Assembly: GCA_032249395.1 (NCBI GenBank) | Contig: JAVVFY010000014.1 | Location: 1 to 12,841, forward strand | Source: Candidatus Aenigmatarchaeota archaeon | Lineage (GTDB): Archaea > Aenigmatarchaeota > Aenigmatarchaeia > CG10238-14 > SpSt-28 | Direction: 5' to 3' | DNA: 12,841 bases | Part shown: one piece after another, positions 1 through 12,841 of the stretch | How positions within the stretch are numbered: position 1 is the stretch's first letter | Layout of the letters: the number at the start of each line of letters is the position of its first letter | Program-made: the position numbers and the translations under genes | Notes under the pieces: generated by a model | Databases searched by the model: none | What the model was told of the DNA's origin: nothing | What the model saw: only the letters and a program-made list of their open reading frames with translations

Positions 1-684
1 TGTTTTAAAAACCTTAATGTATTTTTGATTAAGACGACTAGCTATAACCCTTAAGTCATTTTCCAAAATTTTCAATTCTTTTTCCTTCTCTGACAACAAA
101 GTAGAGAATTTATGAAGTTCTTCTTTTTGTTTTTGTATCAAAGCAAGTTCTGTTTTGGCTTTTTCCAATTTTTTTTCAACAACTTCTTTTTCCTTTTTCA
201 AATTATAAACCTCTACTTTTAATCTGCCTAATTCGTTTTCTTCTTTTGAAATTTCTGAAATAATCCTATTCAAAACTTCCTGCTTTTCCTTTAAAATATC
301 CAACTCCTTTAAAAGTTTTTCTTTTTCCCTTTTAAAGAACTCTATCTCAGACTTTAGAAAATGAATTTCTTTTAAGGCAACTTCTTTTTCCTGTTTTAAT
401 TCTCTTAGCTCTTGATTTAGTTGAGAAAGAAGTAATGTATTACTTTGAATTTGACCCGATATTTTTTGAAGTTGGCTTTCTAATTCTCGTCTTCTTCTTT
501 CTAATGCTTCTATCACAGCCCTAAGATCTCTTGTTTTTAATTCCTTCAAATCATCAAATTCTTTCTTTTTATTCTCAATTTTTTGCTCTAAATCTCTAAG
601 TTCTTTATTTCTTTGCTCTATTTGAGAAACTATAGAAGCAAGGTCATTCTGTAAAGCAATCAAATCTTTTTTAAAGACTTCCAT
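1..684 (-). CDS. Long coiled-coil protein, 3' end outside the window (>=228 aa; MEVFKKDLIALQNDLASIVSQIEQRNKELRDLEQKIENKKKEF...)
   Basis: Not in the ORF track because it has no stop in the window. The ATG at 684 overlaps the upstream TAA (TAATG). Manual translation stays open to position 1 and is K/E/L-rich with heptad periodicity. Confidence 0.85.
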   Translation of the reverse strand, partial: MEVFKKDLIALQNDLASIVSQIEQRNKELRDLEQKIENKKKEFDDLKELKTRDLRAVIEALERRRRELESQLQKISGQIQSNTLLLSQLNQELRELKQEKEVALKEIHFLKSEIEFFKREKEKLLKELDILKEKQEVLNRIISEISKEENELGRLKVEVYNLKKEKEVVEKKLEKAKTELALIQKQKEELHKFSTLLSEKEKELKILENDLRVIASRLNQKYIKVFKT

Positions 685-935
685 TAGTAGAAAATTACAT
701 AGTCAAAGTTAACGTTAGAAAGAAGGGCAGAAGCTAAGTTAATTGTAAAAGAAGTTGCTGTTTTATTGGAAACCCAATATAAAACAGAAATAGCATTAGT
801 AGGAGTAATAAGAACAGAATAAGAAGAGATACTGGTAGGTAAATTTACAACAACAGAAGTAGAACCAGCACTAATAGTTGCTGAACCTCTTATCACATTG
901 AAACCCAACCCAGATGAGGGATTATTGTAAGCCAT
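684..935 (-). CDS. Small beta-rich virion protein resembling the H-type-lectin-like/gp53-like C-terminal module of phage fibres
   Basis: 83 aa, S/T/V-rich, pattern GSATISAGSTSVVV...YSVLITP...WVSNKTATSFTIN...VNFDYV. TAATG-coupled on both sides. Fold assignment is by pattern recognition only. Confidence 0.55.
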   Translation of the reverse strand: MAYNNPSSGLGFNVIRGSATISAGSTSVVVNLPTSISSYSVLITPTNAISVLYWVSNKTATSFTINLASALLSNVNFDYVIFY

Positions 936-1399
936 TAGTTTGTTCTAAGAGCTAAATGAAATTCGGTTATCGAACTTCCAGTATTTGTTCCGCTAACACT
1001 TGAAACTACTATTCTAATACCATCACAGGGAGGAATGGGAAACTCATATTGATATCGACCATTAGGAATATCTGTATTATTCAAAACCAAAGTCATTGGC
1101 TTTAATACCTGCTGTCCTCCTTGAAATGTTGAAGCAGTTTGTTGATAAGCCTGATTATTTCTGTAGAAACTAATTGTTAAAACTATTTGTGTTAAGGAAC
1201 CATAAGTAAGATTAAAACCCAATGTTCCCTGACTATTACTTCTTAAAGCATCAAGATAAGCCAATCTAATGTTTTCGTCAAAAGAAGGAGAAGAAGAGGA
1301 GGGAGATAAATCTAACAAAACAGCATTAGCAGTAACTGGAGATAAGTCATTCCCTTTAATAACTGTTTGTGAAGATGGATAAGTAATGGTAGTAGCCAT
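935..1399 (-). CDS. Hypothetical virion structural protein (beta-rich)
   Basis: 154 aa, S/T/N/Q-rich, downstream of the capsid gene, TAATG-coupled to both neighbours. Confidence 0.6.
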   Translation of the reverse strand: MATTITYPSSQTVIKGNDLSPVTANAVLLDLSPSSSSPSFDENIRLAYLDALRSNSQGTLGFNLTYGSLTQIVLTISFYRNNQAYQQTASTFQGGQQVLKPMTLVLNNTDIPNGRYQYEFPIPPCDGIRIVVSSVSGTNTGSSITEFHLALRTN

Positions 1400-1641
1400 T
1401 ATTCGGAAACTTCCTCAGAAACGACCTCTTGTTTTTTAGATGGTCTACCCCTTTTAGGTTTTTCTTCTGAAGAAACTTCTTCTTCTCCTTCTTCTTCCAA
1501 AACTAATTGAACTTTTCCTGGATAAGAAACTAAAACCCTTGATAATTGAGGTTCCTCTAATTCAACAACTTCACCAGGTTCCAAAACGATATTGAAATAG
1601 GGTTCAATAAGCCTTTCTCCTGAAATATTTTTAACTTTCAT
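1399..1641 (-). CDS. Small acidic protein following the major capsid gene, with a KRGRP (AT-hook-like) motif
   Basis: 80 aa. N-terminal VKN...LEPGEVVEL segment, acidic tail and KPKRGRPSKK. Small proteins of this type often follow capsid genes. Confidence 0.65.
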   Translation of the reverse strand: MKVKNISGERLIEPYFNIVLEPGEVVELEEPQLSRVLVSYPGKVQLVLEEEGEEEVSSEEKPKRGRPSKKQEVVSEEVSE

Positions 1642-1667
1642 CTTCCGTTAAAAGATAAAAACGACCC

Positions 1668-1715
1668 TAGATATCCCAGCCCCACCTCAAAAAGAGATGG
1701 GGCTGGGTACACCTA
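1668..1715 (-). terminator. Strong stem-loop after the major capsid gene (terminator, attenuator or mRNA 3' stabiliser)
   Basis: Minus strand CCCAGCCCCATCTC-TTTTT-GAGGTGGGGCTGGG (1675-1707) forms a 14-bp stem with one U-G pair that only works on the minus-strand RNA. It extends by TAGGTGT/ATATCTA. The U-rich tract is about 13 nt away rather than adjacent. Confidence 0.7.
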
Positions 1716-1719
1716 ACCA

Positions 1720-2733
1720 TTAATCTGTAATTATAGAACCATTTCCTTCAGAAACAACTACTCCTCTCCAGTTAAATGCTCCAACTTTCCATTCTCCATG
1801 AACATCAAAAACATAGGTTTTTGTTACATTATCAAACCAATCTTCTGCTGTAATATCTTTGAAAACTACGTGAACAATAGGAGAGTTATTTCCATCAACT
1901 AAGAACCATCTTGTGTTGCTACCACCCTGAAGAGCGCCAAGATATGGGCTTGTAACTACAATGTATCTTCCTTGAAAGATGTTAGCTACAAAGTTGTTGG
2001 TATATGGAGTATTGGGTGTTTCAGCAATCTCCATAGCTCTTCTAACTAATGCTGGAGGAACTACAAGATAAATTTGTCCTGACATATAGGGCATTGGTTT
2101 TCCTGTATCATCAACTGTATTTTGTGCCAAAAGAATAGCACTTTCTAAGGCACTAACTGATAAATCAGGAGAGGTAGCAAGAACGTTAGAACCAACTCCA
2201 CCACCAACTAATGGGTGTTGGGTAGAAGCAAACTTAACTCCATCTCCATAAGGAAAGAGTTGAGGAGGTAAGTCTGCAGGAGCAGTTCTAACATTGTTGA
2301 ACCAATCAAAAATATGCTTAGAAGCAGTTAAAACAGCATTTTGTCTAATTTTCTTTACTTCGTCTAAAGCTGCGGCGTATTCTGGACTTCTTCTTTCTAA
2401 GCTTTCTCTAGTTACCCTAATTGAACGAGCAAACTGATAAGGTTGAACTTCTGTAATTATTCCTTTGAGATATTCGGACATTGGAAATGGCTGACCTTCT
2501 GCTCTTGGTTCTAAGTAACCTACTAAACCTGTTGTATATGTTGTTTCAAGTTTTTGTCTTCCAGTAGCATTAATTCTTCTAACTAAGGGAGTAACATTTG
2601 TCATTGCATCAAATAAGGAAACAGCATCATAAAGCCTCAATTGCTCATCTCCTTGAGAATAAACTTCAAAGAATTTTGCTCTTACTCCCTCAAGAAAAGA
2701 ATCGATATAGGAAGTAGTTATAGGATTAGCCAT
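1720..2733 (-). CDS. Major capsid protein (HK97 fold, Mu gpT-like family)
   Basis: 337 aa with GDGVKFASTQHPL, LVVPPAL, SPYL...WFL and terminal NWRG motifs typical of gpT-like capsid proteins. Lies after portal, scaffold and decoration genes and is followed by a strong hairpin. Confidence 0.88.
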   Translation of the reverse strand: MANPITTSYIDSFLEGVRAKFFEVYSQGDEQLRLYDAVSLFDAMTNVTPLVRRINATGRQKLETTYTTGLVGYLEPRAEGQPFPMSEYLKGIITEVQPYQFARSIRVTRESLERRSPEYAAALDEVKKIRQNAVLTASKHIFDWFNNVRTAPADLPPQLFPYGDGVKFASTQHPLVGGGVGSNVLATSPDLSVSALESAILLAQNTVDDTGKPMPYMSGQIYLVVPPALVRRAMEIAETPNTPYTNNFVANIFQGRYIVVTSPYLGALQGGSNTRWFLVDGNNSPIVHVVFKDITAEDWFDNVTKTYVFDVHGEWKVGAFNWRGVVVSEGNGSIITD

Positions 2734-2769
2734 TGATTAAGAATTTCAGGTTAATTAAGACCTTAATGA

Positions 2770-3255
2770 TTAGAAAAGTCTTGAGCGAATTTTAACTTTA
2801 CCAACTGTATCAGAAACTTTTTCAATTAAAACAACTTCTTTGGGATAACCTGGGTCTCCTGGACCAACTCTTGTAGAAGCATCTACGTACAAACCACCCT
2901 CGTCTAAAGAATAAGTATCACCTAAGTTGTGAGTAGCAATTGAACCACTAAAATCTGCTACTAAAGTAACATCCTCATTTAATATTGCTACTCTGGCCCA
3001 ATAAGTTTTAGTGGTTGTATTATCCACCGGAGTTTCTATGCTATTTCCAGTTCCTTGACCTAAAACTTTTCCATCTTTACCAGTAAAGCCAACAATAATT
3101 CCCAAAATGTTTGTAGCACCACCAGGAGCAGGAACAACTACTCCACCATCACCAAAAACCACTGCTTGGTTAAGGTAATAAGTTGTTGAATTATCAAGTA
3201 AGAATTCTTTCTCCAAAATAAGAGAATATGAAGTTCTATCAATTTTTAAGGCCAT
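2770..3255 (-). CDS. Putative capsid decoration/cement protein
   Basis: 161 aa, G/V/T-rich beta-type sequence (QAVVFGDGGVVVPA...ILGIIVGF) located between scaffold and capsid genes. Confidence 0.6.
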   Translation of the reverse strand: MALKIDRTSYSLILEKEFLLDNSTTYYLNQAVVFGDGGVVVPAPGGATNILGIIVGFTGKDGKVLGQGTGNSIETPVDNTTTKTYWARVAILNEDVTLVADFSGSIATHNLGDTYSLDEGGLYVDASTRVGPGDPGYPKEVVLIEKVSDTVGKVKIRSRLF

Positions 3256-3284
3256 TTTTAGAATGTAAAGAATGGCGACCCAAA

Positions 3285-3926
3285 TTAGTATTCGAGAACG
3301 GGTTCGTTTCCTTTTAAGAGGGTAGATTTTTGTTCTCCTTTTCTCATTCTTGCTATAGTTTCAGGGCTAACACCCAATTGTGCTGCTTTTATTATGTCTT
3401 CCTGTGTAATTTCTGAAGTTTCAACCTCTTCTGTAGTTTCAGAGGAAAGATTTTGAGCTTTTTGAACAAATTCTTGTTTAGCAGTTTCAGCTGTTTTCTT
3501 TACATTCAAAAGTTCTTTTAATTCCTGTGGTTTAAGAGACATATAAGCAAGAAGTAATTGGTTTTCTAATTCTCCTTCATCTAAGGTGTCAGTAGCATAT
3601 TTTTGCTGCCAAACCTCAAGAACCTGTTTTTTAACATCTTCATTGGTTAAGGCAGTAAGGGTATTAGATAATTTAGCTATCACTTCACCAGCTTTTGCCA
3701 TTTTATAAGCCTCAAACTTACTTTGATCTTGTTCTCTAAGTTCTTTTATTTTCTCCCTTGTTTCATTAAGTTTGTATTTCAAAGCAGCAATAGCATCTTC
3801 TAACCCCTTCTTTTGTTCCTCATAATCTGAAACTTCTTTGGAAAGAGTTTGTTTTTTTGTCTCAAGTTCTTGAATTTCTGCTTCTAAGGATTTTTGTTTA
3901 TCTAAAAGCTCTTGTAATTCGTCCAT
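3285..3926 (-). CDS. Putative capsid scaffolding protein
   Basis: 213 aa, acidic, N-terminal coiled coil, C-terminal ITQEDIIKAAQLGVSPETIAR helix pair typical of scaffold tails. Located upstream of the capsid gene. Confidence 0.7.
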   Translation of the reverse strand: MDELQELLDKQKSLEAEIQELETKKQTLSKEVSDYEEQKKGLEDAIAALKYKLNETREKIKELREQDQSKFEAYKMAKAGEVIAKLSNTLTALTNEDVKKQVLEVWQQKYATDTLDEGELENQLLLAYMSLKPQELKELLNVKKTAETAKQEFVQKAQNLSSETTEEVETSEITQEDIIKAAQLGVSPETIARMRKGEQKSTLLKGNEPVLEY

Positions 3927-3946
3927 TTTTAGAAAAGCCCATTTAT

Positions 3947-3973
3947 TTTACCCCGCTGGCTTCACGGGGGAAA
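3947..3973 (-). promoter_or_regulatory. 5' leader hairpin of the scaffold-capsid transcript
   Basis: CCCCG (3951-3955) / CGGGG (3965-3969) stem with a 9-nt loop, extendable by TTT/AAA. Lies just downstream of the predicted transcription start (~3979). Confidence 0.45.
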
Positions 3974-3985
3974 TTGTTCGTAATC

Positions 3986-4014
3986 ATTATAAACGAGCTA
4001 TTTTGCTTTGTCAA
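3986..4014 (-). promoter_or_regulatory. Perfect sigma70-type promoter for scaffold-decoration-capsid genes
   Basis: Minus strand TTGACA (4014-4009), 17-nt spacer, TATAAT (3991-3986), in the intergenic gap. Confidence 0.85.
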
Positions 4015-4017
4015 GCC

Positions 4018-4260
4018 TCAAAAAGTTTTTCTCTTTTTAATTTTAATTGGCTGTGGTTGAGGAATTTTTACTTTGGGGACTTTAATTTTAGGAATTTTTA
4101 CTACCAATTTTTTTACGTGAGTAGGATAATGAGGAACCTTTAAAGAAGGCATTTTAGGAGCAGAAACCCTTGGCATTTGGGGCTTTTTATAAGTAAGTTT
4201 AACCATTTTGGGTTTTACACCTCTTAAAAATGGACCGACCTTATCGGTTGTAATAACCAT
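4018..4260 (-). CDS. Very basic Lys/Pro-rich small protein (possible DNA-condensing core protein)
   Basis: 80 aa with a single acidic residue and repeated K-(I/V/M)-P-K units. TAATG-coupled to the upstream ORF and preceded by GGTCG with a 21-nt spacer. Confidence 0.65.
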   Translation of the reverse strand: MVITTDKVGPFLRGVKPKMVKLTYKKPQMPRVSAPKMPSLKVPHYPTHVKKLVVKIPKIKVPKVKIPQPQPIKIKKRKTF

Positions 4261-4478
4261 TATTTTTTCTTTTTCTTTTTTCGACCAGCTTTACCTACGC
4301 CATATTTTCCATAAGCAATGGCGGCAGCTATTTGCTGTGCGTGTTTCAAGCTTCTTGGTTTATACTCCGCTCTACTAGTAGTCATTTTCCCTGTTTCCTT
4401 ATACTCCCTTAACAGAGTTTCAATTTCTTTACTTATTGCTTCTCTTTTTTTCTTAGAAATTTTTCTTTTTTTAGCCAT
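4260..4478 (-). CDS. Small basic protein reminiscent of DUF6496-like phage proteins
   Basis: 72 aa, poly-K termini, core ISKEIETLLREYKETGK...AQQIAAAIAY resembling the EFKxGKL...KQAIAIAL pattern. Confidence 0.65.
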   Translation of the reverse strand: MAKKRKISKKKREAISKEIETLLREYKETGKMTTSRAEYKPRSLKHAQQIAAAIAYGKYGVGKAGRKKKKKK

Positions 4479-4884
4479 TTTGCTTTTCTTGATTAAAAGC
4501 GACCATTTGTTTAAGTTCTTTTTTAATTTGCTGAATATTGGGAGCTTGGGGCTTTTCTTGAGGAAAAACTTGGCTTACTTCCTCTTTGGCTTCTATTAAT
4601 CTTTTTATAACTTCCCATTCGGTTACAATGGCACGAAGTTCTGAAGTATGCTTATCATCAAGCCAAGATTGTTTAAGCAAAAAATTCTGCCTTGAAGTTA
4701 TCCATTTTACCAAAAGTGGTTCCTTTTTCCCAATTCTTTTCCACAATTCTTCAGTTTCTTTAGCATCAAATTTCATTCCTTCATCATCAAAATAAGTAGC
4801 AATTCTTCTATCAATTAAATCTCTTTCAATTTCTTTATCCATTAACAATCTGATTAAAAATTTTTTAAATTGCTTCACCCACAT
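4471..4884 (-). CDS. Hypothetical protein downstream of portal
   Basis: 137 aa helical ORF overlapping both neighbours in operon orientation. Confidence 0.7.
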   Translation of the reverse strand: MWVKQFKKFLIRLLMDKEIERDLIDRRIATYFDDEGMKFDAKETEELWKRIGKKEPLLVKWITSRQNFLLKQSWLDDKHTSELRAIVTEWEVIKRLIEAKEEVSQVFPQEKPQAPNIQQIKKELKQMVAFNQEKQNG

Positions 4885-6880
4885 TTAATAAGTCTGTTAA
4901 ATCGGCAAATGTAGTTTTTCTTTTTCTTGAACCATAACCAGGCCTTCCTCCCTTAACTCCTTGTGCTACACTTTCTCCGCCTGCCCTCGTTAGCATCTCA
5001 ATAAATGGTTGAACTCCTTGTTCAGTTGTTGGGGATTGTGTTGGAGTTCCACCTAACAAATATTCGAAAACCCCGTCTATAAGCCAATCACCTGGACTTT
5101 CATTCCAAATCTCGAATAATCTAACAGCAGCTTTTCTTCTATCAACAATATCTGGGAACATTTGAAGTAACAATTGCGCAAATTCCATAAATAGTGCTTT
5201 TTGAACTTGAGGTGTTTGTTCCAAATCAAATCTTATAGCAATATCAAAATCAAGGTTTCTTAGCATTTCAGCAGTAACCTCTATAATTTCAATATTTTCC
5301 TTGTTACTTATTGCCCTTAAAAGCTTTTCTTGTCTTAAGGCCTCTGGAGAGGCAAGAGTTTCTTCATTATCAGTAACCCTTATTTCAAGATTAGCAACTC
5401 CAACAGGAGATGGGACTTCATTAACCCTAATAACATTTCTGAATTTTCTTTCCCCAACAACCTTTTGCATATCAACAGAAGTCATAAATTGTAAAAGGTT
5501 TTTAATTTGTAATCTTGCTTTTTGCTCTAATAAGCTTTGATAAAAGATTTTAGGAAGAGAGAATGATTGCTGAATTGCTTGTTGCCTCAATAGATTTTCT
5601 GCTGCTGATTTGGGTTGTCTTGTAGGTGTAGCAGGAGGAACCAGTGGAGTTGTAATCTTTTCTAAAACACCTTGAAGGTAAACATTCATATTCCACACGC
5701 TTGGGTCTAATGGGTTCATCTGTATTTCTCTAAAGGTATCAGCCATAGGAAAACTATAAATTTTTCCTCCTTCCAATGAGAAGTTACCCTCGGGAACTGT
5801 TGGGTCAGCAGTAACGATTGGAGGATTTATAGCCTTCCATATTCTTTCTAGGGACATTTCAATTAGGTTTTCAATGGCTTCTACAGGAGATTTTATTTGG
5901 TGAACAATAGAAGCGCCATAGAAGAAGTTGTTAGAAATTGGTTTGTAAACCGTATAGGCAAAAGGAAGTTCTTTATGGTTCCAAGGTAGGGGAGATTTAA
6001 CTAATCTTCTGCCTTCTTTAACTGGGTTTATCCAAATACCATTAGCTATCACAACAAACTCATCTTTGGCTCGGTTGTAGTATTTTAAAATCTCAACCTT
6101 ATCTTGCATAAGCATTGTTTTATCCATCAGTTGTGCTATCAAACTATCAGGAGAAAGTCTAATACCAGGATAAACATATTGGGCATTTGGATATTGCCCA
6201 AACTTTCTTTGAAATTCAGTCCATTTCATATAAACTCTCTCTATAACTTCCTCCTGTTTTTGAATATCAGTTTCGTAAATTTTAGGGAAGAAGAAATCAT
6301 CTAAATTGACAATTCTTTCTTCTTTATCGAAAATTTTATCTTCTTTTTCCTCATATTTGATTTCGTATGTTTGAGGGTCAAAATAAGTCACATCTTTGTA
6401 TTTTCTTGTTTTGTAGCGAGCATCAACATAAACAATAACAGTTCCATCGATTATTGCTTGCCAAAACTGTAAGAAATTTTGGATTTTGTCTTTAGTGGAG
6501 CGATACAAAAATTTGAAAAAACCATTTAGTAAAGAGCTTAATTGGACATCAAAGCCCTCAATTCCATAAAATTGAGGATTGAGAGAAAGATTTACTATGA
6601 AAGTTAAAACTCTTTCTACGGCAACTCTATATTCCTGAGAAAAATAAAGTTTTCTTCCCGTAAGTTCATAAGCAGTAGAAATTGGAACCTTTCCATAAAA
6701 TTTGTCTCTTGCCTCTGAAATGTATTCTTTTAGGGTTTTGCCACCAAATTCATCAAAAGTGGAATAATGTATGTTTCTCCAACGATAATACTTATCATAA
6801 ACCTCGGAAATAACTTCAATTTCATCATCCGTAAAATGTTTTATTTTTTCTAAAACAATTTTTTCGTTGTTATTGGCCAT
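4865..6880 (-). CDS. Portal protein (large, P22-like type)
   Basis: 671 aa between terminase and scaffold/capsid genes. The PWNHKELPF...FYGASIVHQIKSPVEAIENLIEMSLE segment and KSAAE motif resemble P22-like portals. Confidence 0.8.
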   Translation of the reverse strand: MANNNEKIVLEKIKHFTDDEIEVISEVYDKYYRWRNIHYSTFDEFGGKTLKEYISEARDKFYGKVPISTAYELTGRKLYFSQEYRVAVERVLTFIVNLSLNPQFYGIEGFDVQLSSLLNGFFKFLYRSTKDKIQNFLQFWQAIIDGTVIVYVDARYKTRKYKDVTYFDPQTYEIKYEEKEDKIFDKEERIVNLDDFFFPKIYETDIQKQEEVIERVYMKWTEFQRKFGQYPNAQYVYPGIRLSPDSLIAQLMDKTMLMQDKVEILKYYNRAKDEFVVIANGIWINPVKEGRRLVKSPLPWNHKELPFAYTVYKPISNNFFYGASIVHQIKSPVEAIENLIEMSLERIWKAINPPIVTADPTVPEGNFSLEGGKIYSFPMADTFREIQMNPLDPSVWNMNVYLQGVLEKITTPLVPPATPTRQPKSAAENLLRQQAIQQSFSLPKIFYQSLLEQKARLQIKNLLQFMTSVDMQKVVGERKFRNVIRVNEVPSPVGVANLEIRVTDNEETLASPEALRQEKLLRAISNKENIEIIEVTAEMLRNLDFDIAIRFDLEQTPQVQKALFMEFAQLLLQMFPDIVDRRKAAVRLFEIWNESPGDWLIDGVFEYLLGGTPTQSPTTEQGVQPFIEMLTRAGGESVAQGVKGGRPGYGSRKRKTTFADLTDLLNVGEAI

Positions 6881-7220
6881 TTATTTCAATTCCGTGTTTA
6901 AATCCTGGCTTAAACCTTGTCCTTTGCCAAGTTTTTTCCAAATGGTATGCTAATGATGGAGCTTTTATAACAACTAGCCTTCTTTTAATTTCATCAACAA
7001 TAATGGGAAGTCTTTGGAAAACATCTTCAGAACTTTCAAAGGTATATGTTCCAATTATCACATTGTTCCTATAAAAAGTCAATTGTCTATTTTCTGGATA
7101 CCAAGAAGCACCAATTTTGCCATCTAGAAGTTGAACCCTTGAAACTAAATATCTAATAGCGCTTAGCATAAGTTGAAATTTTAGGTCCACCCAATGTATT
7201 ACCCTTGAAAAATACATCAA
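6870..7220 (-). CDS. Hypothetical protein between terminase and portal (start uncertain: TTG 7220, ATG 7217 or ATG 7169)
   Basis: ORF fills the terminase-portal gap and overlaps both genes. Confidence 0.6.
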   Translation of the reverse strand: MMYFSRVIHWVDLKFQLMLSAIRYLVSRVQLLDGKIGASWYPENRQLTFYRNNVIIGTYTFESSEDVFQRLPIIVDEIKRRLVVIKAPSLAYHLEKTWQRTRFKPGFKHGIEINGQ

Positions 7221-9888
7221 AGCCCAAGCAAAACATTTCGTGTGCCGACCTCAAATCTGCTTCAGGAGAAATATGTAATGGAACTATTTTCCCTTCTGTT
7301 GTTCCCTTTAAACTTCTTTCTGAAATTTTTGCTGACTTAAGAGCATCTAAAAGTCTTAAAGAACCACTATCATTAGCATTAAACTTTGTAATCTTTAGAT
7401 ACTTTTGAACTGCTCTTTTTCTGATTTCGTGAGAAGTTCCTATGTTAACTATGAGAAAATTAATGCCATTTTTCCTCAAAATTGTTTCAAAAGAGTATCC
7501 TGCTACTTGTGAAACCTGTCTATGGGCTGGTTCTCCAAAAACAATTTTGGGCTTACCCCAGCTCCTTACTTTTTCTAAAAATTCTCTTTCGTATTCATTA
7601 TACCACATTTTGTCATAAGGAATTTCAGGGTTAAGAAATGGAAGCCACCAATCTATAAGAAGTTTATTTGGCATTAACCTTCCGTGAGCAGCAATAGCAG
7701 TTAGATTTCTAATTTCGTTTTTTAATGGGTCATATTGATACCAGCATAAGGCGGTATAATCTTGGAAACCAGCGAAGTCGGCTGAAGCAAAAAGTGGTAA
7801 TTTGGGGTCAAATTCTATGGGTTCTATCTGGCATTCGTAAGCTTCAGGGTAATACCTTAGTTTAGGGTCAACATCATAAGAAAGTTCTAATTCTGCTAAA
7901 AATGATAATGGGTCTTCTTTTCTTAGTTCAAACTCTTTTTTGTACCATTCTTCGTCTTTGAATGGATGTTGTTTCCAATGTAAAGTGAAAACCTTACCTT
8001 GTTCTCTTAAGTTATCTACAAATCTTTTTAAGAATTGATTTTCTGTTGGTGTTGAAACATAGATTTTGACCTTTGAAGTATCTTGAACACTTCTTAAGCT
8101 TTCTTCCAAATATGGCCAATAGGCTAATTCATCCATATAAACAACTGAGCAATTATGAGAAACTATAAGATTAGTTACAAAGTTATGCCCTTCAACTTCT
8201 AAATCATAAGTCTCTTCGGGAGGCAATTTTTCAATTTTTCTAACATTTCTGTAATTAAACAACGAATCATACATTTCTCGTGAAGGTTTTTTATATGATT
8301 TAAAATCTGGATTTCTAAAGCAGTCACCAATTAATTCCTTTAGCTTTTCTCCTTGTTTTCCCATAATCTCTACTCTATATATGTTCGTCCCATATCTTTT
8401 ATCATATCTTTCAGTAACTGTCGCAAAAATACCCAAAGAATACAATAGATACCTAACTCCTTCTGCCAACTTTTTAGATGAAGTATGGTAAGTATATCTC
8501 AAAATTTTATTGAAAGAACTTAAGCAAACACTACCATCTCCTATCCACAAACCCCTTAAAAATGCTGTTTTTACTCTTTGAGGAGAAATGAAAATAGGAA
8601 ATGGAACTTCTTTGTCATTGGCATAATAATAACCAACCCCGAAATTTGCTAATAGTCTCTTCACAAATGAAGAATGGATATAAACGTCATAGCAAGGCTT
8701 CTTTTTAACAATTATCCTATCTTTCCAATTATGCCCCCGAAAAATTCCCTCTTCATTTTTTCTAACCGAATATTTCAATTCACCAAAATTCTTTCGCAAT
8801 AACTCTATAAACCTTTCAATAATCTTCGTGTTTGTATTTGAAAATTGAATAGTGCTACTATTTACAATACTTCCCTTTGAAATTAAAAGTCCAATCAATT
8901 CTGCCAAATCTTCATTTAAAACAGTAGGTATTTGAGAGGGGATATTATTATCAGTCGCCTTACTTTCCAGCTTTTCAATCCTGTAATAATCAGAATTTAT
9001 CAATTGAGGGATTTTTCTTACATCAAAAATTTTTACTTTGTCTCCAACTTTCAAATCTTTTAGGGGAACCCAAATTTCTTTTTTGTTTCTTAAAACCTTT
9101 ACGGGATGGTCTTTTGTTCCCTTCAGAACAATATTACCCCCTAATCTGACTTTTATGATTTCTTCTGGGGGCAATTTAATATACCTCAAAATTTTCTTTT
9201 TCTCCCCATTTTCGTCAATAACATATGGATACATTTCATCAACAATTTTCTTAATTGGCATAAATCCCTTGTCAGTTAAGACTAAAGTATCACCAGTAAC
9301 ACATCTATGACCCCTCCCGAAGTTAGGATTAGCACTTTCTCCGTATAATACACTTCCATTTTCAGGATTGATTAACTTCATATGATTGTCGTGAAATTTC
9401 TTTTTGAAGTTTTTAGGGAAAAGCCATTTAGGTTGAGCATAAATAAGATATCTTATCTTGCCAAATATAGAACTTATGGCCTTATTATCAACTTCCACTT
9501 CTTTTCTTGAACCTATAAGAGCTGAAAATTTTTCTGTAAATAGCCAATGATAAACGAGCCAATGAACTATGGTCCAAGTAACTCCCATATCTCTTGATTT
9601 TTCTATATAAAGAACATCACCATCGTAAAATGCTTTTTCAAGTCTATAAATCAAATCTGCTTGATAGTCAAAGGGAACAAAAATAATATCTGGTTCTTGA
9701 ATGTTTCTTGGTTCATATACCCAACCACAGATTTCTATCCATTTGTAGATGTTTTTCTGAAATTCTCGGTAAAGATAAACTCTTGCTTCATAAGAAAGTT
9801 CGGCAGCTCTCAAAAGCTCAAATCTTGTATCGATATATTTCTGATATTCTTCTGATTTAAGATATTCTTGAAGTTTTTCTAGGTTCAT
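7153..9888 (-). CDS. terL: Terminase large subunit containing an intein (911-aa precursor, ~527 aa spliced)
   Basis: Adenine-binding FDYQ, Walker A EKSRDMGVTW, GRG motif then Walker B VVYMDE, coupling motif VSTP, and a C-terminal RNase H-like ASADFAG...D region. Confidence 0.93.
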   Translation of the reverse strand: MNLEKLQEYLKSEEYQKYIDTRFELLRAAELSYEARVYLYREFQKNIYKWIEICGWVYEPRNIQEPDIIFVPFDYQADLIYRLEKAFYDGDVLYIEKSRDMGVTWTIVHWLVYHWLFTEKFSALIGSRKEVEVDNKAISSIFGKIRYLIYAQPKWLFPKNFKKKFHDNHMKLINPENGSVLYGESANPNFGRGHRCVTGDTLVLTDKGFMPIKKIVDEMYPYVIDENGEKKKILRYIKLPPEEIIKVRLGGNIVLKGTKDHPVKVLRNKKEIWVPLKDLKVGDKVKIFDVRKIPQLINSDYYRIEKLESKATDNNIPSQIPTVLNEDLAELIGLLISKGSIVNSSTIQFSNTNTKIIERFIELLRKNFGELKYSVRKNEEGIFRGHNWKDRIIVKKKPCYDVYIHSSFVKRLLANFGVGYYYANDKEVPFPIFISPQRVKTAFLRGLWIGDGSVCLSSFNKILRYTYHTSSKKLAEGVRYLLYSLGIFATVTERYDKRYGTNIYRVEIMGKQGEKLKELIGDCFRNPDFKSYKKPSREMYDSLFNYRNVRKIEKLPPEETYDLEVEGHNFVTNLIVSHNCSVVYMDELAYWPYLEESLRSVQDTSKVKIYVSTPTENQFLKRFVDNLREQGKVFTLHWKQHPFKDEEWYKKEFELRKEDPLSFLAELELSYDVDPKLRYYPEAYECQIEPIEFDPKLPLFASADFAGFQDYTALCWYQYDPLKNEIRNLTAIAAHGRLMPNKLLIDWWLPFLNPEIPYDKMWYNEYEREFLEKVRSWGKPKIVFGEPAHRQVSQVAGYSFETILRKNGINFLIVNIGTSHEIRKRAVQKYLKITKFNANDSGSLRLLDALKSAKISERSLKGTTEGKIVPLHISPEADLRSAHEMFCLGFDVFFKGNTLGGPKISTYAKRY
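8152..9303 (-). mobile_element. Intein with LAGLIDADG homing-endonuclease domain (384 aa, precursor residues 196-579)
   Basis: Block A CVTGDTLVLT, block B GTKDHPV, block C LAELIGLLISKGS, block E FLRGLWIGDGS, block H LAEGVRYLLYSLGI, blocks F/G TYDLEVEGHNFVTNLIVSHN followed by +1 Cys. Confidence 0.95.
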
Positions 9889-10577
9889 TTGACATTACTT
9901 CTTCTCACATACTTTAATAAAAATTCTTTTTTCTTTTCTGGATTATTTTGGTCTTGTTCCACAATCTTCAAACTTTTTATCATTTCTTCATCGGGTTTGT
10001 AGTCAATAGAGAGAATGTGATACAAAGAAGACATCGTTTTTAGAGAGGTAAAGAATGTTGCTGGATGTTCTTTGGCAAGTTTTTTGAGATATTGCGGAGT
10101 TACTAAATCTAACATATGCGCTATTTTTTCTTCAACTCTTTTAAGCAAATCTAAGCCCTTAATGATTTCTATTGATTGCAAATCTCTTAATCTCCTTTGT
10201 GTGGGAACAATCGCTCCAGTTTTAGCGTCAATCTGATAATGTCTTACAACCCAATAAAAACTCTTTAATTCGGTAAGGGCGTTATAGATTTTAGTTGTAA
10301 TGTATTCGGGGTTTCTTTGTAAAAACTTACCAAGATTAACTGCCAACATTCTTGCAATTCCTATGCTTCTTTGAGGATTATAGCCAAAAACTTCTTGAAA
10401 TTTTTCATCAAACCATTCTGGAATAAGTTTTTTCTTGTCTTCCTTGTTTTTTTCTCTTGCTATAATTTCCTCAACTTGAAAAAATTCAATAAGTCTATCT
10501 TCGCCAATAGCTTCAATAAACTTTTCAAGCTTATAATCACTAAAAAGTTGTCTTATGTTTTGGTAAGCTTTAGCCAT
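9885..10577 (-). CDS. Hypothetical protein, candidate terminase small subunit
   Basis: 230 aa helical protein directly upstream of terL with an ATGA overlap. Assignment is positional only. Confidence 0.5.
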   Translation of the reverse strand: MAKAYQNIRQLFSDYKLEKFIEAIGEDRLIEFFQVEEIIAREKNKEDKKKLIPEWFDEKFQEVFGYNPQRSIGIARMLAVNLGKFLQRNPEYITTKIYNALTELKSFYWVVRHYQIDAKTGAIVPTQRRLRDLQSIEIIKGLDLLKRVEEKIAHMLDLVTPQYLKKLAKEHPATFFTSLKTMSSLYHILSIDYKPDEEMIKSLKIVEQDQNNPEKKKEFLLKYVRRSNVK

Positions 10578-10596
10578 TTAGCAAAAAGCCAAGAAA

Positions 10597-10854
10597 TTAA
10601 GACTTATTATCTGGTTTTAGAACCACTAGAACATTGGCATCGAACTGATATTTGCCCATAATTTTTATAATTCTTCGGAGAAGTTTCATTGTTCTTCCTT
10701 TTCTACCCAATATTTTTCCCTTGTATTCACCAGCACAATCTATCACAACTTCTAATCCTTTTAGGGTTTGTTTTGAAGTTAAGCTTACATCTACTCCAAA
10801 AACTAACTTGATTAAGTTCTTAATTGCTTGTTCTATTTGACTAACTTCTGTCAT
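10597..10854 (-). CDS. khpA: KH-domain RNA-binding protein (KhpA/UPF0109-like)
   Basis: 85-aa single domain with GKILGRKGRTMKLLRRII, matching the KhpA signature GKVIGKxGRTxxAIR (GxxG loop), and similar size and layout. Confidence 0.8.
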   Translation of the reverse strand: MTEVSQIEQAIKNLIKLVFGVDVSLTSKQTLKGLEVVIDCAGEYKGKILGRKGRTMKLLRRIIKIMGKYQFDANVLVVLKPDNKS

Positions 10855-10865
10855 CTTTCATCTAA

Positions 10866-10895
10866 ATTATAAATACACTTTTTCTTATTTGTCAA
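10866..10895 (-). promoter_or_regulatory. Consensus sigma70-type promoter for the KH-terminase-portal operon (near-leaderless)
   Basis: TTGACA (10895-10890), 18-nt spacer, TATAAT (10871-10866). The ATG is only 11 nt downstream of the -10 box. Confidence 0.75.
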
Positions 10896-10919
10896 GTTTT
10901 TTGAGTAAAATTAAATAAC

Positions 10920-11987
10920 ATGAAAGACATAGAAGAGTTCAAAAATAAAATAATATGTGGCGATAGTTTCAGTATTTTAAAAAAAATTCCAGACAATTCT
11001 ATTGATTGTATTATAACTTCTCCTCCTTACTGGTCCTGCCGTTCTTATTTGCCAGAGACTGATGAAAACAAAAAATTTGAAATAGGCCTAGAAGACCATC
11101 CACAAGAATACATTGACAAAATTGTGGAAATATCTTTGGAATGTATAAGAGTTCTTAAAAAAACTGGAGTTTTTTTTCTAAATTTAGGAGATGTTTTTTA
11201 TACTTCGTCTCATCAAGGGGGAACAGACAGATTAAATAAAGAATTCAACAAAATCTATAACCACAGAGTAAATATAAGAGGCAAATATAAAGATAATTGG
11301 CTTCAACAGAAAGGAAGATTGTTATTACCAATGAGAATAGCAATAGAACTCCAAAATAGGGGAGTAATAATCAGAGATGTTATTATTTGGGCTAAAAAGA
11401 TTACTAAATACCCCGAAAAAACATCAATAGGAACTGCAATGCCATTTCCAGTTAGAGATAGACTTTTACATGCTTTTGAATATATTTTCCAAATTGTTAA
11501 GTCTAAAAAATATTACTTTGACTTATCTCAAATTAAAACTCAAATTAAAAGAAGTTCTAGCTTAAGCCATCAAAATCCTATGGTAGAAGCTTATAAAGAG
11601 GATAATCCACATAAAAAAACTATGGCTGAAGTAGAAAAATTTAGAAAAAGATATTCTATAGCTTCTCAAGTAAAAAATTGGAATATTCAGCTTTCAAAAG
11701 AACTAAGTGGAGCAAATCCTACAAATGTTTTAATGTTTAAGGTTGAAAATCAATATTCAGTTCCCTCTGGACACTATGCTAAATTTCCTACTTCATTAGC
11801 AGAATTCTTCATCTTAGCAGGATGTCCTAAAGACGGAATTGTTTTAGACCCATTTTGTGGGAGTGGAACTACTTGTGTAGTTGCTAAAAATTTAGGAAGA
11901 AACTATATAGGAATTGACTTAAATCCTAAATATTGTGAAATTGCTGAAAAAAGATTAGAAAATACACAATCTCCGTTAGCCCCCTAA
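10920..11987 (+). CDS. Orphan beta-class amino (N4-C/N6-A) DNA methyltransferase
   Basis: N-terminal motif IV IITSPPY and C-terminal motif I VLDPFCGSGTT, plus H-x-A-x-FP and IGIDLNPKY. No restriction endonuclease is adjacent in the window. Confidence 0.93.
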   Translation: MKDIEEFKNKIICGDSFSILKKIPDNSIDCIITSPPYWSCRSYLPETDENKKFEIGLEDHPQEYIDKIVEISLECIRVLKKTGVFFLNLGDVFYTSSHQGGTDRLNKEFNKIYNHRVNIRGKYKDNWLQQKGRLLLPMRIAIELQNRGVIIRDVIIWAKKITKYPEKTSIGTAMPFPVRDRLLHAFEYIFQIVKSKKYYFDLSQIKTQIKRSSSLSHQNPMVEAYKEDNPHKKTMAEVEKFRKRYSIASQVKNWNIQLSKELSGANPTNVLMFKVENQYSVPSGHYAKFPTSLAEFFILAGCPKDGIVLDPFCGSGTTCVVAKNLGRNYIGIDLNPKYCEIAEKRLENTQSPLAP

Positions 11988-11988
11988 A

Positions 11989-12066
11989 TTTGCTCTGAGA
12001 GAAAACTTTCTAGAAGGTCAAATATAAAGATACTTGCCCGCTAAAAAAAATTTGTCTCAGAGCAAA
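11989..12066. repeat. 12-bp perfect inverted repeat with a 54-bp spacer right after the methyltransferase stop
   Basis: TTTGCTCTGAGA (11989-12000) and TCTCAGAGCAAA (12055-12066). Confidence 0.8.
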
Positions 12067-12299
12067 ATAGAGTCATCCACCCATAAAATAACCATAATTA
12101 GCATTAAAAAACCCTTTATTTTAGGCCTTTTTTAGCAAAGAGGACAGTAATTCAAAAAACCAATTTTTTCAAGAAAAATCGAACAAATCAAAAACTTAGC
12201 TCAAAAAGGGGGTATCAAGCCTCCCAAAGGGCAGGATTAAGGCTAAAAGGGGTCACATAATGAGGGGGGAATAACCCCAAAATTATAGCAAAAAGCAAA

Positions 12300-12700
12300 A
12301 CCTCGTGGCAAAAATCCCATTCCCAAGCCTAAACTCAACCATAAAAGCCTAAATTTTTCTCGTTTTTTCTTACTTTTTTAAACCCAAAAACTCAAAAATC
12401 AAGCCCCCAAAACCAAAAATTCAGCCCTAAACTAACAAAAACAAGCATACAAAAGTCCAAAATCATTTCCCTAAAACATCAAAACAAACTCCAAAAAACC
12501 AACAAAAAAGACACAAAAATTACAAAAAAACAAGCTAAAAAGAGAAAAATTGAGCTTAAAACCTGTAAAAACAAGCCAAAAAGCCTAAAAAACAAGCCAA
12601 AACTCCTTTCAAAGTTCGTAAAATAAACCTTCTGCGAACCTAAAAGATCAAAAAACAAAGCAAAAACTAGCTTTTCAGGAACCTTTCTGTCAAAAAAGCT
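12300..12700. repeat. A/C-skewed non-coding region with phased A-tracts and short repeats (AAAACAAGC x4, AAGCCTAAA x3)
   Basis: No ORF >=60 aa. A5-A7 tracts start at ~12493, 12504, 12515, 12524, 12537 and 12545. Confidence 0.65.
12613..12640. other. Putative Xer/dif-like recombination site (11-6-11)
   Basis: AGTTCGTAAAA-TAAACC-TTCTGCGAACC. The reverse-complement arm GGTTCGCAGAA matches the E. coli dif XerC arm GGTGCGCATAA at 9/11. Confidence 0.55.
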
Positions 12701-12747
12701 TGAAACTTCCCCGAAAACTTAAAGGCCTTTCAAAAAGCTGGGGATTA

Positions 12748-12841
12748 TATACTTTTCTAATCACCTTTCTCTATACTTTTCTAATCCACCTTCTCTATAC
12801 TTTACCAATGAGGTAATATATACTTTACTAATCACCCTTCT
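12748..12841. repeat. Tandem 23-24-bp direct repeats, iteron-like (consensus TATACTTTWCTAATCACCYTTCTC), running to the window edge
   Basis: Units start at 12748, 12772, 12796 (degenerate second half) and 12819. Confidence 0.85.

Follow-up and report, generated by a model that had tools for sequence, protein, structure and literature searches.

We describe a phage gene for a small, stand-alone KH protein related to KhpA, located on contig JAVVFY010000014.1 of the Candidatus Aenigmatarchaeota archaeon assembly GCA_032249395.1. The stretch of DNA analyzed here (hereafter the window) is that entire 12,841-base contig, C14 of a 25-contig, 752,806-base genome bin (G000). The open reading frame (ORF) of 85 amino acids at positions 10597-10854 of the minus strand is a genuine KH-type protein gene; judged from profile comparisons, its product is a divergent homologue within the KhpA/KhpB branch of type II KH domains, and the setting of the gene is a tailed phage of about 42 kb. 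An earlier sequence-only reading of the window had placed a KhpA-like KH protein at the head of a phage packaging operon and had marked positions 10597-10895 for it, a span that takes in a promoter-like site besides the ORF.

Fold, GxxG Loop, and Selection

Modeling of the KH protein with AlphaFold2, for which a 21-row alignment served as input, resulted in a mean predicted local distance difference test score (pLDDT) of 90.5 and a predicted template-modeling score (pTM) of 0.79. The elements of the model follow in the order helix-strand-strand-helix-helix-strand (H3-19, E24-30, E33-39, H42-49, H51-71, and E75-79), which is the type II KH topology, and the GxxG loop, G50-R-K-G53, lies between alpha2 and alpha3. 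Both glycines of the loop, together with R54 and T55 that follow it, are unchanged in 21 of 21 aligned KH sequences. The protein is basic (isoelectric point 9.89, with 16 lysines and arginines vs. 8 aspartates and glutamates). Across three gapless ortholog pairs the ratio of nonsynonymous to synonymous substitution rates (dN/dS) is 0.064-0.109, and the gene is under strong purifying selection.

A Foldseek search of the Protein Data Bank (PDB) with the model returned type II KH domains only, with probability 1.00 and template-modeling (TM) scores of 0.57-0.71. The lowest E-values were those of archaeal uS3 (2.7e-4 to 9.4e-4), whose KH domains occupy the top three rows, and the best TM scores, normalized to the query, were those of the KhpB/Jag structures 3gku and 9lrg (0.70-0.71); KH domains of Era and NusA were also among the matches, and the E-values vary little between KH families. 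The predicted fold, on which the sequence-only proposal of a stand-alone KhpA-like KH protein with an intact GxxG loop in a phage had hinged, was therefore found, and the proposal is borne out by the model, the Foldseek matches, and the profile alignment given below.

Homology and Family Placement

The only Pfam match of the KH protein is to PF13083 (KH_KhpA-B; E 1.9e-7, 31.3 bits, residues 7-69), just short of the curated cut-off of 32.1 bits, which the relatives P0023 (34.0 bits) and P0024 (33.2 bits) exceed. Among the NCBIfam KhpA entries considered (PRK02821 and PRK00468), the equivalog PRK02821 scored 28.8 bits vs. its cut-off of 106 bits. The check by hidden Markov models that had been proposed for KhpA was hence divided in its outcome, with a match to the family and scores below the cut-offs of both collections. 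The uS3, NusA, and Era families are absent among the Pfam and NCBIfam matches. Alignment of the KH profile with eight canonical KhpA sequences in hhalign gave a probability of 98.4% (E 6.2e-15) over 74 columns at 28% identity, and the best meaningful match of the profile among PDB sequences was archaeal NusA (E 0.025), the top rows being a spurious repeat protein.

A word-based search recovered 22 relatives of 51-100% identity on contigs of at most 46 kb, and an exhaustive profile search of 1.84 billion representatives resulted in 41 proteins at E <= 1e-3, with 4 of them at <= 1e-10. Such a small number of matches among so many representatives indicates that the KH protein belongs to a small isolated clade and is not a recent copy of a cellular khpA. 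Relatives were not found when the profile was compared with species genomes, a fold search of BFVD returned nothing at E <= 0.001, and the only match in scans of viral contigs with two distant KH proteins was a spurious one of 20 residues. In the ESM Atlas, the KH query scored best (0.80) with a KhpA cluster of Woeseibacteriota, followed at 0.76 by a KhpA-like cluster of 52 mostly viral members; neither score is high enough to be more than a lead, and the viral cluster hints that other phages may carry KhpA-like genes.

The gene for KhpA (YlqC/UPF0109; PF13083) is usually chromosomal and near rpsP-rimM, whereas the phage gene lies between a DNA methylase gene and packaging genes. The phage protein further differs from KhpA in scoring below the curated cut-offs, in having no KhpB partner among the 49 phage proteins scanned or in the archaeal bin, and in conserved motifs that are its clade's own, namely IFG at the end of alpha1, GKYQ, and LKPD. 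What the two have in common is a single type II KH domain of about 80 amino acids, an intact GxxG followed by R-T, profile homology over the full domain, and an alpha3 dimer with free GxxG loops, which for the phage protein is a prediction (PMC6403258).

Comparison with other KH families gave a similar mixture of likeness and difference. The KH domain of KhpB/Jag/EloR yields the best TM scores with the phage protein, which nevertheless has neither a Jag-N nor an R3H domain and scores 16.4 bits vs. the 145-bit cut-off of the NCBIfam Jag_EloR entry. The N-terminal KH domain of uS3 and the KH domains of NusA and Era share the type II fold, but these are domains of larger proteins with other partners, unlike the stand-alone phage protein. 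A second group of small KH proteins (P0029, P0030, P0035, P0041, P0055, and the product of a 77-amino-acid gene on contig G008:C6) aligns with the phage protein over its full length, at 24-36% identity to the window protein or its family, and shares with it the IFG/IWG and RRLxRIWG-type alpha3 motifs; these proteins score near the Pfam threshold. The 77-amino-acid gene (locus L017, 105-338, minus strand) comes after two tail-fiber-like genes of about 690 amino acids and a 52-amino-acid ORF, which has GGTCGTATTAAT upstream, on a 5-kb viral-looking contig that was binned in a sister archaeal genome.

Phage catalogues contain few KH proteins. There was no match for the KH protein in PHROG, and tblastn with the phage KH family found no match in 50,697 phage records, 7 of which, all unannotated and mostly short, are matched by canonical KhpA. 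The literature, as represented by listings, abstracts, and the review PMC11261784, yielded no account of a stand-alone KH protein encoded by a phage. In bacteria without Hfq or ProQ, a global role in RNA binding is emerging for KhpA and KhpB (10.64898/2026.10.12.757534; PMC13015501). A phage-borne KhpA-like protein would suggest that phages make use of such RNA-binding proteins or interfere with them, and one that stands at the head of a packaging operon would be a handle on the abilities of a minimal KH dimer.

Predicted Homodimer

Modeling of the homodimer, which the sequence-only reading had put forward as a check, gave an interaction prediction score from aligned errors (ipSAE) of 0.49, with 0.48-0.52 over three runs, against 0.00 for the best of three controls. 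The pLDDT of the partner was at least 86 in these runs, and the contacts agreed to 100%. The mark set for ipSAE was reached by 20 of 30 solved homodimers and by 1 of 23 solved monomers, a calibration that is only rough because our own alignment was used as input. In the model, the interface consists of residues 10-20 (alpha1) and 55-70 (alpha3), and the GxxG loop lies outside it.

An antiparallel dimer through alpha3 has been proposed for KhpA of S. pneumoniae, in which the substitution I61F abolishes self-interaction, and the same alpha3 face serves both KhpA and EloR/KhpB pairing (PMC6403258). Our model mirrors the pneumococcal dimer, and its success against the mark may therefore stem in part from resemblance to KH dimers already known. 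We predict from the model that the phage KH protein forms a KhpA-style dimer via alpha1 and alpha3.

Promoter and Putative Transcription Unit

Directly upstream of the KH gene is a sigma-70-type promoter, TTGACA-18-TATAAT (10866-10895, minus strand), that fits the consensus at 12 of 12 positions and whose -10 hexamer ends 11 nt before the ATG. The two hexamers, 17-18 nt apart, are present in all 8 of the KH loci examined. The -35 hexamer is TTGACA in 7 loci and TTGAAA in 1, and TATAAT ends 5-14 nt upstream of the KH ATG; the spacer and leader sequences drift among the loci, with the window and locus L003 identical there, and the KH proteins of the 8 loci are 49-100% identical. Two complete relatives in IMG/VR were available for comparison, G001 (41,736 bases, 98-99% identical to the window) and G002 (42,326 bases, with direct terminal repeats of 285 bp). 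G001 and G002 have 4 perfect consensus promoters each, located at corresponding places, compared with 0.12 expected from shuffles and with 1 in the remaining 734,589 bases of the archaeal bin. These four promoters precede the leftward early genes, the primase gene, the KH gene, and the scaffold-capsid unit.

An archaeal interpretation of the phage signals, as B recognition element (BRE) and TATA box, was considered and rejected, as TATAAT stands 5-14 nt before the KH ATG and the TATA-like signal of the bin stands at 28-22 nt. Given the geometry of archaeal promoters, a distance of 5-14 nt from the ATG is too near for archaeal initiation, and TTGACA has no archaeal role.

The gene for a 230-amino-acid protein comes directly after the KH gene in every KH locus long enough to show it, and the genes downstream of KH are separated by a 19-nt gap or overlap. 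Terminator-like sites were not detected in 9500-12841, and 7 were detected in 1-9600 vs. 6.9 expected. The next perfect promoter, TTGACA-17-TATAAT (3986-4014, minus strand), starts a unit that runs from a 213-amino-acid coiled-coil protein through the capsid protein. With a conserved promoter, abutting genes, terminators at chance level, and the next consensus promoter only at 4014-3986, the KH gene plausibly opens a unit of eight genes that includes the terminase. The sequence-only reading had named this a terS-terL-portal transcript headed by KH; the first place after a consensus promoter and the identity of TerL were verified, whereas the names terS and portal are positional. Its assignment of the unit to late genes is doubtful, because early expression would go with a perfect consensus promoter of host type close to the genome end just as well as late expression would.

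Comparison with G002, whose genome end is 1,710 bases away from the start of the KH gene, maps that end and the 285-bp terminal repeat near 12270-12550 of the window. A near-consensus promoter, TTGCCA-18-(TG)TATAAT (12282-12311, minus strand), lies in the stretch that corresponds to the terminal repeat in G002 and reads antisense through the methylase gene toward KH. A separate observation concerns the leader of about 58 nt between the second consensus promoter and the 213-amino-acid gene, which contains a G+C-rich hairpin, CCCCGTGAAGCCAGCGGGG (3951-3969, minus strand), that is kept in G001, G002, and G007.

Phage Group and Host

All members of the KH clade with visible context lie on pieces of tailed-phage genomes of about 42 kb. 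The bin in which the window was found is archaeal, with the gene order rpoA''-L30e-NusA-S12-S7-EF2, and its 614 upstream regions outside C14 are A-rich at -33 to -30, T-rich at -28 to -25, and A-rich at -24 to -22 before the ATG, a pattern that is a BRE/TATA signal at leaderless distance. Two further contigs of the bin are of phage origin: C22 is 98.5% identical to G001 32957-36724, and C24 is 83-89% identical to G001 28626-31310 and represents a second strain. The presence of a second strain in the same bin suggests binning by composition. Links to the phage group were found in 3 of 9 genomes of the archaeal genus (the bin itself; G007, with a 671-amino-acid protein 92% identical to that of the window; and G008, with the 77-amino-acid KH relative), and queries from the group found nothing in 52 genomes of other genera. 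The 671-amino-acid protein also had no relative in 401 sampled genomes of one phylum of the candidate phyla radiation (CPR).

Several features of the phage are at odds with an archaeal host. The promoter geometry is bacterial and conserved, the lysin combines PG_binding_1 with a papain-like peptidase, and the replication genes include a DnaG-type primase with a CHC2 zinc finger and a DnaB-like ATPase; PG_binding_1 was not found in any of the 31 Aenigmatarchaeota-related genomes searched. A further link to the archaea is seen in the 710-amino-acid tail fiber of G002 (locus L011, 8260-10392, minus strand), the C-terminal part of which is 90% DNA-identical over 120 nt to a surface-protein gene on archaeal contig C8 (33662-34696), with the ends of C1 and C11 also involved. 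The best protein relative of this part is chromosomal in Aenigmatarchaeota (77%), followed by CPR bacteria (54-59%), and by eye we take it to resemble DUF2341/LamG-type surface-protein domains. On these sequence comparisons it looks like an adhesin module common to phage and episymbiont lineages. The host is probably a bacterium, and an archaeal host is somewhat unlikely. A phage with bacterial-type signals in an archaeal (DPANN) bin matters when bins are read for virus-host links.

An array resembling clustered regularly interspaced short palindromic repeats (CRISPR) lies on bin contig C16 near 7229. It is the only one in the bin and has no match to G001 or G002; short DNA matches in the relatives include none in repeat arrays, and a spacer match was not found.

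The GGTCG Boxes

The pentamer GGTCG occurs 8 times in the window, every time on the coding strand, vs. 2.5 expected, and 0 of 200 shuffles reach 8. All 24 copies in G001 run co-directionally with the local genes. An ATG that opens an ORF of at least 40 amino acids follows at 19-28 nt for 16 of the 24 copies in G001 and 13 of the 27 in G002, compared with 0-5 for each of 19 permutations of the same letters, and the strong copies have a long DNA consensus in common, AAAAGGTCGnTAATTAAAAA. Boxes on the minus strand of the window are located at 7246-7250 (25-28 nt before the start of a 116-amino-acid ORF; GGTCA in L022), 4500-4504 (21 nt before the ATG of a 72-amino-acid gene; GGCCG in G007), 4282-4286 (21 nt before that of an 80-amino-acid gene), 3276-3280 (20 nt, 161 amino acids), 1662-1666 (20 nt, 80 amino acids), and 1422-1426 (22 nt, 154 amino acids).

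One box is found between the hexamers of a perfect -35/-10 promoter, with 2 nt separating it from the -10 hexamer and 70 nt from the ATG, so that the motif there tracks the promoter and not the start codon. At that site G001 and G002 have GGTCG, and the window, where the promoter is at 3986-4014, has GCTCG. The leader of the KH gene itself has no box, and the motif is not strictly conserved in late coding regions, with two late-region boxes changed in relatives. A box also precedes the two-gene unit that ends in the distant KH gene of G008:C6. The archaeal bin contains 0.096 GGTCG per kb per strand, with 4 in the 614 upstream regions and no positional peak; the absence of enrichment or a peak in the bin indicates that the motif is the phage's own. 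Judged by their sequence and placement, the boxes are best understood as a distinct DNA element that is promoter-proximal and specific to the phage.

A -10-like hexamer directly downstream of GGTCG was tried as a candidate and rejected, its fit to TATAAT being no better than background in AT-rich DNA. An extended form of the box, GGTCGNTAATTAAAAA, matched 108 stretches of viral contigs. In 80 of these 108 rows, more than one match was found only in G001 (3), G002 (4), and one 5-kb contig (2), and single matches are at the chance level for 15 fixed bases. A scan with the capsid protein found only G001, G002, and one fragment. As every relative found either carries KH or is a fragment, the co-occurrence of KH and GGTCG cannot separate function from ancestry. 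A strong box without an ATG within 40 nt is located at G001 24153 and on the reverse strand of G002 at 14367, with the downstream sequence conserved in both; the box could mark a long leader or a small RNA.

Proposed Function and Alternatives

The reading that we favor, and hold to be evenly poised between right and wrong, is that the KH protein is a dimeric accessory protein that binds single-stranded RNA with low sequence specificity during infection. Expressed from a strong, sigma-70-like, host-type promoter at the head of a terminase-containing unit, behind a leader of very few nucleotides, the protein would form a symmetric dimer via alpha1/alpha3 that leaves two GxxG grooves free. These grooves could hold two short single-stranded stretches of nucleic acid, most likely RNA, and the dimer would then act on transcripts of the phage or the host, as an RNA-binding accessory or chaperone of low specificity. 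We infer RNA as the ligand, as well as the targets and the effect on infection. Several observations weigh against this reading: the protein scores below the curated cut-offs for KhpA, Foldseek ranks KH domains of ribosomal uS3 and not KhpA at the top, and no KhpB-like partner was found in the phage (0 of 49 proteins scanned) or in the bin. KH domains can also bind single-stranded DNA (PMC11261784), a capacity that, with packaging genes as neighbors, would allow a role in DNA packaging. In such a role the dimer would bind DNA that is single-stranded or melted, or else an RNA cofactor, at the end of the genome and act with the 230-amino-acid protein and TerL in recognition or in the function of a small terminase. 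The KH gene lies directly upstream of the genes for these two proteins in every locus seen and is separated by about 1.7 kb from the terminal repeat of 285 bp in G002, and the 230-amino-acid protein has no recognizable TerS fold, so that the recognition function is left without an assigned protein. We nonetheless consider a packaging role unlikely, since adjacency within one conserved phage lineage is not independent evidence and no terminase system is known to use a KH protein, though no search aimed at one was made. Take-over of the host by mimicry, in which the KH protein would pair through its alpha3 face with a host KhpB or KhpA and redirect or block its RNA network, is in our estimation distinctly unlikely. 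Whole-domain homology to KhpA, a predicted self-interface on the very face that KhpA uses for KhpA and EloR/KhpB (PMC6403258), the KhpA-like genes in 3 of 4 genomes searched from the CPR, a candidate host group (weak matches of 19-24 bits), and a consensus promoter near the genome end, which would suit an early take-over gene, are all in keeping with it. However, the only PF13083 match in the archaeal bin, the one genome linked to the contig, is NusA, and no Jag/EloR was found there (best match 16.1 bits, again to NusA), which indicates that this genome has no host KhpA or KhpB; in addition, the phage clade is far from cellular KhpA and hence not a recent capture from a host. This is the hijacking of a host KhpB that the sequence-only reading had suggested.

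That reading had also suggested that the KH protein binds GGUCG in transcripts and, together with the boxes and the consensus promoters, constitutes a post-transcriptional control of late genes. The motif is genuine, phage-specific, confined to the coding strand, and positioned before ATGs, with no enrichment in the archaeal bin; a box precedes the unit that ends in the distant KH gene of G008:C6, and boxes inside operons would occur in read-through RNA. Against this, one box sits within the spacer of a perfect promoter, the strong copies share the long DNA consensus AAAAGGTCGnTAATTAAAAA, three boxes differ among close relatives, none is present in the leader of the KH gene, and a 5-nt motif gives no reason for KH over any other reader. 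The boxes behave as a promoter-proximal DNA element, and we regard binding of KH to them as very unlikely and the three components as unsupported as one control system. It would be a long shot that the KH dimer reads the boxes, as GGUCG in read-through RNA or in a displaced strand, and thereby switches on some 20 short-leader genes without Shine-Dalgarno sequences; if true, this would be a KH-based expression switch private to the phage lineage and without counterpart among described phage regulators. The short leaders also figure in a conceivable role at the ribosome, where the KH protein would attach to the small subunit in the manner of the uS3, Era, or RbfA KH domains and favor short-leader, Shine-Dalgarno-poor phage mRNAs. 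Most phage starts do lack a Shine-Dalgarno sequence, promoters end 5-14 nt before the KH ATG, and the top three Foldseek rows are uS3 KH domains, but Foldseek E-values differ little across KH families and sequence profiles place the protein with KhpA/KhpB and not with uS3, and we rate such a role as highly improbable.

Neighboring Genes and Other Features

The 230-amino-acid protein encoded next to KH (9885-10577, minus strand) can be called TerS by position only. Searches of Pfam, PHROG, NCBIfam, a phage database, and PDB sequences were without match, and a usable match was not found in the ESM Atlas. Its model is all-helical with a pLDDT of 71, the C-terminal 100 residues being poorly modeled; Foldseek returned nothing at E <= 0.001 (best 0.42), and the best VIA match had a Z of 5.8. 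The following gene encodes the large terminase TerL (7153-9888, minus strand), whose 911 amino acids contain an intein with a LAGLIDADG homing endonuclease (Pfam Intein_splicing, LAGLIDADG_3, and Hom_end). In the more distant relative L022, TerL has 527 amino acids and no intein.

After TerL, the minus strand continues with the 116-amino-acid ORF, the 671-amino-acid protein (4865-6880), small ORFs, the coiled-coil protein, and the capsid protein, which matches PF25209 (E 2.3e-9). The 671-amino-acid protein is a portal protein by size and position only, and searches of Pfam, PHROG, NCBIfam, PDB sequences, and the phage database gave no match for it. On the plus strand, divergent from the KH gene, is a gene for an N4/N6 DNA methyltransferase (10920-11987). 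An Rfam scan of the window detected nothing, and tRNA genes were detected in neither the window, G001, nor G002.

The place between the 230-amino-acid gene and TerL differs among relatives. In L003 it holds an extra ORF of 138 amino acids (10998-11414, equivalent to G001 11189-11605) that is absent in the window, and in G002 it holds a 123-amino-acid ORF behind a GGTCG box on the reverse strand near 2679. The insertion is variable, without family match, and possibly mobile. Beyond the methyltransferase gene, positions 11988-12841 (minus strand) are T/G-rich and non-coding, with iteron-like GGTGATTAGAAAAGTATA repeats at 12740-12841.

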